A program made the translations under genes and the position numbers. From Candidatus Bathyarchaeia archaeon (lineage in GTDB: Archaea; Thermoproteota; Bathyarchaeia; 40CM-2-53-6): DNA of 64,000 nt. Within the stretch, counting starts at the first letter, position 1. Every line of letters starts with the position of its first letter. The notes beneath the pieces are model-generated. The model was not told where the DNA came from. It searched no databases and saw only the letters and a program-made list of their open reading frames with translations. Shown here piece after piece: positions 35,268 to 54,426 of the stretch. The DNA lies in assembly GCA_050013255.1 (NCBI GenBank), contig JBEKFP010000001.1:256001-320000 (forward strand). The letters are read 5' to 3'.

Positions 35268-35457
35268 TGGCGGGCCCGCCGGGATTTGAACCCGGGACCC
35301 TTCCCCAAGAAGGCTTCTCGGCCGGTTTCTTTTCGGGTGGCTTCCCATGGGTTCTAAAAGCCCAGAGGTAAAAGCATCACCGACACCCGCTCGGCGTCTC
35401 CGATGCTCTACCTTTTCAGGATCCAATTTCGAAAGGATCTGACTGAGCTACGGGCCC
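35268..35457 (-). tRNA. tRNA-Lys(UUU) with four BHB introns (35414-35440, 35376-35399, 35339-35368, 35301-35332)
   Basis: Spliced product GGGCCCG TA GCTC AGTCAGGTA GAGC A TCGGG CTTTTAA CCCGA GGGTC CCGGG TTCAAAT CCCGG CGGGCCC G CCA; each intron bounded by a BHB motif. Confidence 0.88.
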
Positions 35458-36457: not shown

Positions 36458-36740
36458 TGATACCTCGGAGCAAAATGAAAACAACCGCGCTCTATTTAAT
36501 GACTAACTGATGACAAAATCAGACAAGAGGGCTAACGAGATGGCTGAAGAAGTTCCTTAGGTGCGGAAAATGTGGTTACGAATCCCTTTCCGAAACGTTG
36601 AACTCACCATGCCCTAAATGCAAGAGCCAAACGCTCGAAGAGAAAGACACGAAAGCCTTGTCGGGCTTCGATGATTAGACAGACGTCACTGCACTAGCGT
36701 CTTGGCCAGTCTTTATTGTAGAGGAGTGCCGAACGCGGGT

Positions 36741-36845
36741 TGGCGCCCTTCGCCAGGAGAAGCCTAGGCTGCTCCTTTGGGCGGGATTCGAACCCGCGTC
36801 GACGACGTGACAGGCCGTCATCCTAGACCACTGAACGACCAGGGC
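36741..36845 (-). tRNA. tRNA-Asp(GUC) with a BHB intron (36749-36777) in the acceptor stem at 68/69
   Basis: GCCCTGG..CTGTCAC..GCGGG TTCGAAT CCCGC CCA[29 nt]GGGC G CCA; perfect BHB CGCC-CA^A-AGGAG..CTCCT-GGCG-AA^G. Confidence 0.9.
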
Positions 36846-36971
36846 ATCGGCATCCCAGAAATCGCTGTGCCAGCTTAAAGCATTGCTACAATATACACTC
36901 CCGGAACAGAGAAGACGCCTACCTTACGCTTCTTCGCAAGGATGTGACGAGATACGGACTCATATTCGATT

Positions 36972-41510: not shown

Positions 41511-41664
41511 TGGTCCCGCGGGCCGGATTTGAACCAGCGACGCTCCGGTTTCCGTTGTTAGCCTAGTAGGCTGACATGGGTACGCCTTGGGCGCACACCT
41601 ACAGCGTCTCCGTCGCTCCGAATAAGAGAGACTCGGAAGCTCTACCAGGCTGAGCTACCGCGGG
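41511..41664 (-). tRNA. tRNA-Tyr(GUA) with two BHB introns (41606-41633 at 30/31; 41550-41598 at 37/38)
   Basis: C1-G72 acceptor CCCGCGG/CCGCGGG; spliced anticodon arm TCCGG CTGTAGA CCGGA; encoded CCA. Confidence 0.9.
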
Positions 41665-42955: not shown

Positions 42956-43070
42956 TGGCGGGCCCGCGGGGATTCGAACCCCGGATCCCAGGCTTTCACC
43001 GCATCCGCTCCGAAGGCTTACACGAATCTGACGCATCTCTGTGTCTTAATCCTGGCTCGACTACGGGCCC
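42956..43070 (-). tRNA. tRNA-Arg(UCG) with two BHB introns (43018-43038 at 29/30; 42995-43009 at 37/38)
   Basis: Spliced anticodon arm CAGGC CTTCGGA GCCTG; BHB ACAC-AG^A..GTGT-AA^G. Confidence 0.9.
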
Positions 43071-45906: not shown

Positions 45907-46470
45907 ATGGAGAACAACCCCAGCGCAGCACCTCAAACTCCCGCGCAAGTCCAAGAAAAACCACCGTTTACCCCTTGGATCGCGGTGTCCGGCCCGGGTT
46001 TGGTATACCTACCCTACAAATCTGAACTCATGGAGCTTAGGGACCGAGGATTCGGCGACCTCCGGAACGACAGGCTTGTCCTTTCTCCGTACGAATCATT
46101 CTACCTTCTAGAGAAACAGAAGATTCGAGTGTTTGCCAAGGATGCAAGCCGGGAGTTGGAGCTTCGAGACTTAGTCCAGAAGTATTCAGTTGGCAAACCC
46201 GAGATCTGGATCAAGTACTTGGTCTACCGTGACCTACGGGACCGTGGGTACATAGTCCGCGAGTCCACTAAAGCCTTCGACTTTGACATTTACGGAAAAG
46301 GGCCGCTGAGGCGTTTAATCTCAATCGTTTACGAAGGTGGCGAAGCGAGCCTTCAGAAATTAAGTAAACTGCTTCAATATTCTGACAAGGAGAAGAAGGA
46401 ATTGATACTAGCCGTTGTTGACAGGCGGACCGACATAGTGTACTATACGTTGAGTTCGTTGAATGTCTAG
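45907..46470 (+). CDS. tRNA splicing endonuclease, structural (non-catalytic beta-type) subunit
   Basis: LSPYESFYLLE, KYLVYRDLRDRGYIVR, LILAVVD..DIVYY; lacks the catalytic His after the DFxxY motif. Confidence 0.82.
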   Translation: MENNPSAAPQTPAQVQEKPPFTPWIAVSGPGLVYLPYKSELMELRDRGFGDLRNDRLVLSPYESFYLLEKQKIRVFAKDASRELELRDLVQKYSVGKPEIWIKYLVYRDLRDRGYIVRESTKAFDFDIYGKGPLRRLISIVYEGGEASLQKLSKLLQYSDKEKKELILAVVDRRTDIVYYTLSSLNV

Positions 46471-54024: not shown

Positions 54025-54174
54025 TGGCGGGCCCGCGGGGATTTGAACCCCGGACTTCTGTACCAGTGCTGGGCTGGTTCTACAGCTTTTTCCGGGTGTT
54101 CCTTAGGGGGTTCGGCAACAAATTCCGCTTTCTCAGCGGAGCCTGCCGCTCTATCCAACCTGAGCTACGGGCCC
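54025..54174 (-). tRNA. tRNA-Arg(CCU) with three introns (54111-54142 at 30/31; 54088-54103 at 37/38; 54056-54079 at 45/46)
   Basis: Spliced arm GCAGC CCCCTAA GCTGT AGGTC; perfect BHB CTGT-AG^A-ACCAG..CTGGT-ACAG-AA^G; C at position 33. Confidence 0.8.
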
Positions 54175-54264
54175 AAGGGGGGAACGGGGCGGGTAAAGTA
54201 AAAGGATTAAGGCGCAGCAATTCGAAGAAGTTTAAAGAACCAACCGGATTTCCTTTGTCTCTGT

Positions 54265-54426
54265 GCGGGGATACCCGAGCCAGGTCAAAGGGGCAGGACC
54301 ACCCGGCGTGGTGGGGCCACACTTAAGATCAGAACTTGCCTTGGGTGACGAGAAGACATCCTGTGGCGTAGAGCCAGCGGATGGGCGCGTAAGCCTTCAG
54401 GGGTTCGAATCCCCTTCCCCGCACCA
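54265..54426 (+). tRNA. tRNA-Leu(UAA) with three introns (54298-54320 at 30/31; 54328-54357 at 37/38; 54372-54392 in the variable arm)
   Basis: Spliced GCGGGGA..CAGGA CTTAAGA TCCTG TGGCGTAGGCCTTC AGGGG TTCGAAT CCCCT TCCCCGC A CCA. Confidence 0.88.

Follow-up and report, generated by a model that had tools for sequence, protein, structure and literature searches.

A predicted intron four bases before the discriminator of a Bathyarchaeia tRNA-Asp gene, and a 3' trailer that may serve as its splicing clamp

In a 64,000-nt stretch of the genome of Candidatus Bathyarchaeia archaeon (GCA_050013255.1, contig JBEKFP010000001.1, positions 256,001-320,000 of the forward strand; hereafter the window), we find that the tRNA-Asp(GUC) gene is interrupted by a 29-nt insert within the 3' strand of its acceptor stem, and that the bases directly after its CCA end are complementary to its own T arm. 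We read the insert as an intron with a motif of the bulge-helix-bulge (BHB) type between tRNA positions 68 and 69, and the downstream element as a trailer that would clamp the precursor in a cleavable conformation. Taken as a whole, this account, i.e., a single essential tRNA-Asp gene with a 68/69 BHB intron, a trailer clamp and an ordered maturation, appears highly probable. That the insert is a spliced intron seems nearly certain from sequence comparison, and the clamp function of the trailer is favored with clearly more reserve. Splicing itself, the clamp role and the maturation order are inferred from sequence comparison and thermodynamic modelling. In what follows, G000 is the source genome, g1 is the genus of the source archaeon, and other g and f numbers denote genera and families. 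The gene and its elements, in window coordinates, are as follows.

36778-36845, minus strand: tRNA-Asp(GUC) exon 1, positions 1-68 (sequence; ARAGORN; Rfam RF00005, 43.4 bits; near-invariant in 22 sister species)
36749-36777, minus strand: predicted 29-nt BHB intron AAGGAGCAGCCTAGGCTTCTCCTGGCGAA between positions 68 and 69 (sequence, folding, alignment and intronless orthologs)
36741-36748, minus strand: tRNA-Asp exon 2, comprising G69-C72 (GGGC), discriminator G73 and the encoded CCA (sequence; invariant in a 25-sequence alignment)
36733-36740, minus strand: 3' trailer element ACCCGCGU, the eight bases directly after CCA (conservation, co-occurrence, covariation and folding)
36791-36799, minus strand: trailer partner ACGCGGGUU within exon 1, comprising variable-loop A-C, the T-stem 5' strand G49-G53 and U54-U55 (RNAduplex)
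36873-36880, minus strand: TATA-like box CTTTAAGC, about 28 nt upstream of G1 (read by eye from the sequence)

Exon 1 holds the 5' acceptor strand, the D arm, anticodon arm and T arm and then C66-C67-A68, and the identity of the gene follows from the GUC anticodon (7-nt loop, 5-bp stem), the cloverleaf and G73 (ARAGORN Asp(gtc); Rfam 43.4 bits for the unspliced gene). The acceptor sequence GCCCUGG/CCAGGGC-G-CCA is common to tRNA-Asp of many archaea. Both exons lie on the same strand, in order and 29 nt apart; a split or permuted tRNA gene is ruled out by this arrangement at one locus. The TATA-like box is a probable archaeal promoter, and a similar TTTAAG stands upstream of tRNA-Asp orthologs.

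The insert and its flanks form a motif of the hBHBh' type, which is defined by outer helices in the exon (h) and in the intron (h') of at least 2 bp (PMC7714728). The central helix H has 4 bp, pairing C63-G64-C65-C66 (CGCC) with GGCG near the intron end (36783-80 with 36754-51), and it is flanked on opposite strands by two 3-nt bulges, C67-A68-A with the cut CA^A (36779-77) and A-A-G69 with the cut AA^G (36750-48). Helix h is C61C62/G70G71, 2 bp and invariant (36785-84 with 36747-46), whereas h' is AGGAG/CUCCU with 5 bp (36776-72 with 36759-55). Read from its start, the intron thus supplies the A that completes the first bulge, both strands of h', the bottom strand GGCG of H and the AA of the second bulge. 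Cuts after the second base of each bulge would give the 68/69 junction, predicted as CCCGCCCA joined to GGGCGCCA. Because A residues flank the site, cuts at 67/68 would yield the identical product, and the choice of 68/69 follows the BHB rule, by which each bulge is cut behind its second base. Removal of the intron leaves a 76-nt tRNA with the acceptor GCCCUGG/CCAGGGC paired at 7/7 positions, followed by G73 and CCA, and this product was modelled as a cloverleaf in which the T stem and the acceptor stem both have a probability of 1.00.

The comparative evidence for an intron is extensive. An insert is present at the identical site in all 22 other species of the genus, where the exons are almost invariant and the intron loop varies in sequence and length (24-32 nt) with the helices kept. 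In an alignment of 25 sequences from five families, all five pairs of h' show changes on both sides and 99% of the cells are paired; none of 500 shuffles reached the observed covariation score, and slid controls were 37-48% paired. The central helix covaries as well. A T stem GCGGG/CCCGC goes with the intron end GGCG, and a T stem CCGGG/CCCGG (in G033 and in other orders) goes with GCCG, so that H changes to CGGC/GCCG where the T stem changes and is kept in every homolog. The sister genera g2 and g3 of the same family, and several other families, have the gene without the insert. Intronless orthologs carry the exact predicted junction, CC[A/T]GGGCGCCA (CCCGC-CC[A/T]-GGGC-G-CCA), as seen in genera g2, g3, g5, g8, g10, g13, g16, g23, g33 and g38, and base 68 covaries with base 5 in these orthologs.

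The gene is also the only one of its kind in the genome, as judged by ARAGORN, Rfam, BLAST with this gene and with the sister-genus type, and a scan of every GUC anticodon arm. The sole other T-arm match, at C1:221627-221659, was considered as a second tRNA-Asp and ruled out, being part of a multi-intron tRNA-Glu. The genome itself (2.46 Mb in 3 contigs, 50% GC) gives only 21 Rfam tRNA hits, and their near-universal over-length indicates a very intron-rich archaeon.

These results bear on a preliminary description of the locus, made from the letters of the window. Its account of a tRNA body intact to C66-C67-A68, a 29-nt insert at 36749-36777 and a following GGGC-G-CCA is exact in coordinates and description. 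The BHB that it drew (CGCC/GGCG, CA^A, AA^G, AGGAG/CTCCT and CC/GG) is confirmed, with h' covarying beyond chance, and the acceptor pairing that it expected on excision is borne out by the 7/7 pairs and by the same junction in intronless orthologs. The survey of orthologs that it proposed found the insert in 22/22 other species of the genus and intronless relatives with the predicted junction. Neither a second intact tRNA-Asp nor an insert without BHB conservation, both of which figure in its grounds for doubt, was encountered; the gene is single and its BHB covaries.

The genome encodes candidate enzymes for both cleavage and ligation. Two copies of the splicing endonuclease EndA were identified, one of them inside the window.

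45907-46470, plus strand: diverged EndA paralog of 187 aa (PF01974, 58 bits; NCBIfam beta-subunit models and EndA structures match weakly)
G000 C2:171801-172055: alpha-like EndA, the catalytic copy (PF01974; matches 3p1z_B at 1.5e-38, near crenarchaeal catalytic alpha subunits)

In a heterotetrameric splicing endonuclease, the diverged paralog would probably be the structural beta subunit. The ligase RtcB (PF01139) is encoded as well. Its match consists of two pieces, separated by about 1.4 kb within one open frame of 1039 aa (G000 C1:110968-113778, outside the window), an arrangement that points to an intein in the ligase gene.

The 68/69 intron extends well beyond the genus. A covariance model of T arm, intron and 3' end, applied to 105 genomes of the order, recovered the intron in g1 (22/22) and in families f2, f5, f7, f9 and f10 (in part), and the intronless form in g2, g3, f3, f6, f8 and parts of f2 and f10. 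Among 151 genomes sampled across the class, the intron also occurs in other orders, in f23, f16, f31, f29 and f25. An exact-pattern scan of one genome per species, covering 185,579 species, matched 42 contigs, nearly all titled Bathyarchaeia or Bathyarchaeota. Four matching contigs belong to metagenome-assembled genomes titled as bacteria (L127, L130, L140 and L147, from Acidiferrales, Acidoferrum, Methylomirabilota and Phycisphaerales). L127, L130 and L140 hold the genus-type tRNA-Asp, and L130 is identical to a Bathyarchaeia contig; these three are most likely mis-binned. Within the source genome, the 3' ends of tRNA-like genes whose T arms are intact were scanned, and among these genes tRNA-Asp alone has a 3' acceptor strand that is interrupted.

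The second conserved feature of the locus is the trailer. Together with A76, ACCCGCGU is the reverse complement of ACGCGGGUU, and the duplex of trailer and partner has a predicted energy of -21.4 kcal/mol (z = -4.9 against shuffled trailers, RNAduplex). The element is conserved in all 22 species of the genus, whereas the sequence just beyond it diverges. More broadly, across 11 genera of this order and 7 of other orders, a complement of the T-arm 5' strand stands 0-17 nt after CCA in every intron-bearing tRNA-Asp examined, and in 0 of the intronless genes examined. By genus median, the duplex energy ranges from -12.2 to -20.6 kcal/mol among 11 intron-bearing genera, as opposed to -1.8 to -7.8 kcal/mol in 8 intronless ones, and three of these contrasts between intron-bearing and intronless genes fall within a single family each (f1, f2 and f10). 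The pairing covaries between genera, with G:C at position 49 in 11 genera and C:G there in 7, with C:G at position 48 in 15 genera and A:U there in 1, and with additional pair changes in the variable-loop part. A tRNA(CAU) gene from another Bathyarchaeia order (L165, G107 C7:64851-65187) has an intron at the same 68/69 site, between CCC and CGGC, with H CGCC/GGCG, and its trailer CCCGCGA is complementary to its own T-arm 5' strand UCGCGGG; the architecture is therefore not confined to tRNA-Asp.

Folding models indicate what such a trailer might do. For an RNA ending at CCA, the probability of the central helix is 0.00 and that of the T stem 0.99; with the native trailer these become 0.94 and 0.00, and with shuffled trailers they average 0.34 and 0.51. 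This modelled switch is alike in all 22 members of the genus, and in other families the T stem is lost with varied central-helix probabilities. The minimum free energy structure of a 121-nt precursor, at -56.0 kcal/mol, is the clamp hairpin, compared with -52.6 kcal/mol when the BHB is enforced and -49.6 kcal/mol when the T stem is enforced. A 108-nt stretch without the trailer has an unremarkable folding energy (z = -1.4) and retains the T stem, and the BHB conformer emerges only when the trailer is included in the folded RNA.

From these results a sequence of events can be proposed. Because residues 61-66 are required for the BHB, the splicing motif excludes both the T stem and the acceptor stem. 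Within the precursor, C63-C65 of the T stem, together with C66, would pair with the final GGCG of the intron as the 4-bp central helix, and C61-C62 would pair with G70-G71 as the outer helix. The T-arm 5' strand ACGCGGGUU, thus freed, would pair with A-ACCCGCGU, and this clamp pairing would lock the 3' third of the transcript in one long hairpin that presents the BHB. A heterotetramer-type EndA might then cut CA^A and AA^G, RtcB would ligate A68 to G69, and the trailer would be removed after ligation, whereupon the cloverleaf folds. A trailer acting as a decoy for the T-stem 3' strand implies that splicing comes before 3' trimming. The preliminary description had already held that the BHB competes with the T and acceptor stems and that splicing must precede end maturation; the comparative evidence for that competition is strong, and the ordering, now backed by the conserved trailer, is kept here as a proposal. 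Sequence comparison and folding models together make a splicing-clamp function of the trailer somewhat better supported than its opposite. A stronger version, in which the trailer is an obligate cis conformational switch that imitates the T-stem 3' strand, captures the 5' strand and licenses EndA to cut an intron whose motif has to draw on T-stem residues, enforces splicing before 3'-end maturation and represents one case of a general leader/trailer decoy rule in intron-rich archaea, appears to us evenly poised.

Several observations weigh against this account. The outer helix h has only 2 bp, and in the unconstrained minimum free energy structure a second bulge of 2 nt is preferred to the canonical one of 3 nt. 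When metagenome contigs were scanned for the spliced junction, 11 loci were recovered; these were intronless genomic copies of tRNA-Asp from other lineages (T loop TTCAAAT), and spliced RNA from this genus was not among them. Within the genus the trailer hardly varies, so that its covariation depends on comparisons between genera, and the trailer pairings were picked by an energy optimizer, with shuffling as the sole control. In the models, the trailer fails to displace the T stem in f5, and several genes of f2 and f9 have a low central-helix probability despite a lost T stem. Finally, in spliced RNA that still bears the trailer, the trailer helix dominates the modelled ensemble and the clamp and the cloverleaf are close in energy, whereas the cloverleaf is certain once the trailer is absent. 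Release would then need removal of the trailer or tertiary folding.

Among alternative explanations, the one that survives best accepts the intron but gives the complementary trailer another purpose, with the BHB formed by the help of proteins alone. The trailer could be a 3'-processing or termination signal, a shield against premature RNase Z, CCA or aminoacylation steps, or a means of quality control. The f5 genes and some of f2 and f9, where the modelled trailer brings no rise in central-helix probability, are in line with such a purpose. So is the trailer helix that persists after splicing, since its competition with the cloverleaf fits a delay of end maturation, and the proposed tie between trailer and cleavage is itself drawn from models and comparison. 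A general 3'-processing signal would not, however, be expected to be absent from every intronless ortholog examined, including those of sister genera in the same family. Furthermore, the complementarity is kept and covaries although its offset from CCA varies over 0-17 nt, and for the present gene the modelled switch is near-complete. We therefore regard another purpose as unlikely, though it retains an appreciable share of the probability.

With respect to the f5 trailers (L026, L027, L094, L098 and L099), the CGCGUUG complement is followed by a second conserved block, GAUGCGGGCGCG, which is similar to the T-stem 5' strand and able to form a hairpin with the first block; it may explain the lack of a modelled switch in this family.

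Returning to the intron itself, it might be argued that the insert is retained, either in a decaying pseudogene or in a tRNA that ends near 36771 with a mismatched acceptor stem. Standard tools do call the gene in this way: ARAGORN and Rfam report an intronless tRNA-Asp of 36771/36773-36845, and the contig scan described above yielded no spliced RNA. Such a molecule would have three mismatches in the seven acceptor pairs and would lack G73-CCA, and it would be the product of the only tRNA-Asp gene, whose exons are near-invariant and whose BHB shows compensatory changes across several orders. The pseudogene form is rejected for these same reasons, namely the single gene, the near-invariant exons and the covarying BHB, and retention of the insert is on balance very improbable.

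Equally improbable is an integration scar (attL/attR) in the tRNA gene, for which it can be said that tRNA 3' halves are common integration targets and that AACCCGC in the trailer resembles the T-stem 3' strand AAUCCCGC; after CCCGC, however, the trailer runs GU(C), the complement of the variable loop, and not the CCAGGG expected of a duplicate, the insert is merely 24-32 nt long with a covarying BHB, and the neighbors of the gene are an HtrA-like protease and an AMP-binding enzyme, with no integrase or cargo nearby. This reading was rejected, as the trailer complements the T-arm 5' strand and variable loop and does not duplicate the 3' end. The preliminary description also remarked that the intron breaks the tRNA 3' half which viral integrases typically use as attB; protection of such a site by the intron would be speculative.

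Marck and Grosjean in 2003 and Sugahara in 2007 and 2008 reportedly described non-canonical BHB introns in the tRNA genes of archaea. The predicted intron resembles those known from Thermoproteales, Thaumarchaeota and Asgard archaea (PMC4090602, PMC4033280) in its 4-bp helix, two 3-nt bulges and cuts after the second bulge base, and in being a short intron for which the exon supplies half of the motif. The genomic setting is likewise similar, with an intron-rich organism that encodes RtcB and a heterotetramer-type EndA accepting non-canonical sites. It differs in its site, 68/69, four bases before the discriminator; introns in the acceptor stem are described as few (PMC12397907; bioRxiv 10.64898/2026.10.13.758758). 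Even so, the preliminary description overstated the novelty of that site. A 2025 paper in Nucleic Acids Research names the acceptor stem among the known non-canonical intron regions (PMC12397907). A review that enumerates many sites in the D arm, anticodon arm, variable region and T arm refers to 3/4 as an 'extreme case' (PMC4090602), tRNAscan-SE 2.0 extends its candidates by 60 nt to catch introns near the 5' or 3' ends (PMC8450103), and a 2026 census of Asgard tRNAs reports "few" acceptor-stem introns (bioRxiv 10.64898/2026.10.13.758758). As acceptor-stem introns are already known as a rare class, the 68/69 site is rare but its kind is known. Our literature search on position 68, whose scope did not include the primary catalogues of intron positions, returned nothing relevant.

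The new element here would rather be the trailer tied to the intron, as the sequence comparison suggests. Split and permuted tRNAs of Nanoarchaeum, Caldivirga and Thermofilum (PMC3218864, PMC3978253) and pre-rRNA stems (PMC7714728) also use outside sequence that is discarded later to build or stabilize the EndA substrate. Their flanks, however, pair with each other and form the motif itself, whereas the tRNA-Asp trailer would pair with the mature T-stem 5' strand as a decoy, freeing its partner for the BHB. No description of a trailer pairing with a mature T-arm strand to unmask a BHB was found in our literature search.

The persistence of tRNA introns is thought to be limited by the ability of the exon to supply half of the BHB. 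In tRNA-Asp the motif can form only by dismantling the T stem, and in folding models a co-evolving sequence outside the mature tRNA does so. A trailer clamp would give a concrete, testable order of maturation steps. If the decoy rule were true, leader and trailer decoys would let introns persist where the mature fold would hide the splicing motif. A further implication would be that programs for finding introns and annotating tRNAs ought to inspect flanks; ARAGORN and Rfam mis-end this essential gene. The present case adds Bathyarchaeia to the lineages with extreme tRNA gene fragmentation.

Some related observations concern tRNA-Asp in the order as a whole. In sister genera the gene (L075-L083 in g2, L074 in g3, L030 and L034) has no 68/69 intron and at least three others, one of which, by eye, seems to interrupt the 5' acceptor strand at 4/5, directly facing 68/69 across the helix. 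Some 30 nt upstream, the leader repeats the 5' acceptor strand (GCCCAGG or GCCCTGG, also read by eye), and this copy may be a decoy comparable to the trailer element. When 36778-36845 is set against L024-L028 and L074-L083, the D arm of the g1 gene, GUUCAGUGGUCUAGGAU, is distinct from the UAGUAUAGCCCGGUC... of every other family in the order. The g1 gene has lost every other intron and shares its 3' part, 68/69 intron and trailer with other families; it may be chimeric, or its 5' two-thirds may have been replaced.

Other tRNA loci lie in the window. About 1.3 kb downstream of tRNA-Asp, at 35268-35457 (G000 C1:291271-291457, minus strand), ARAGORN in its intron mode identifies a tRNA-Lys(CUU) of 187-190 nt (Rfam 31.8 bits), a length that fits several introns. 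Further T arms with acceptor strand and CCA occur at about 41511-41664, 42956-43070 and 54025-54426 (C1:297538, 298983, 310052 and 310399). Default ARAGORN finds only tRNA-Asp in the 64 kb and misses these loci, which probably represent additional tRNA genes interrupted by introns. Between the HtrA-like gene and tRNA-Asp, a small open reading frame with a CPKC zinc-ribbon-like motif (36598-36678, plus strand) is convergent with the tRNA and ends about 55 nt from the trailer element, with no overlap.
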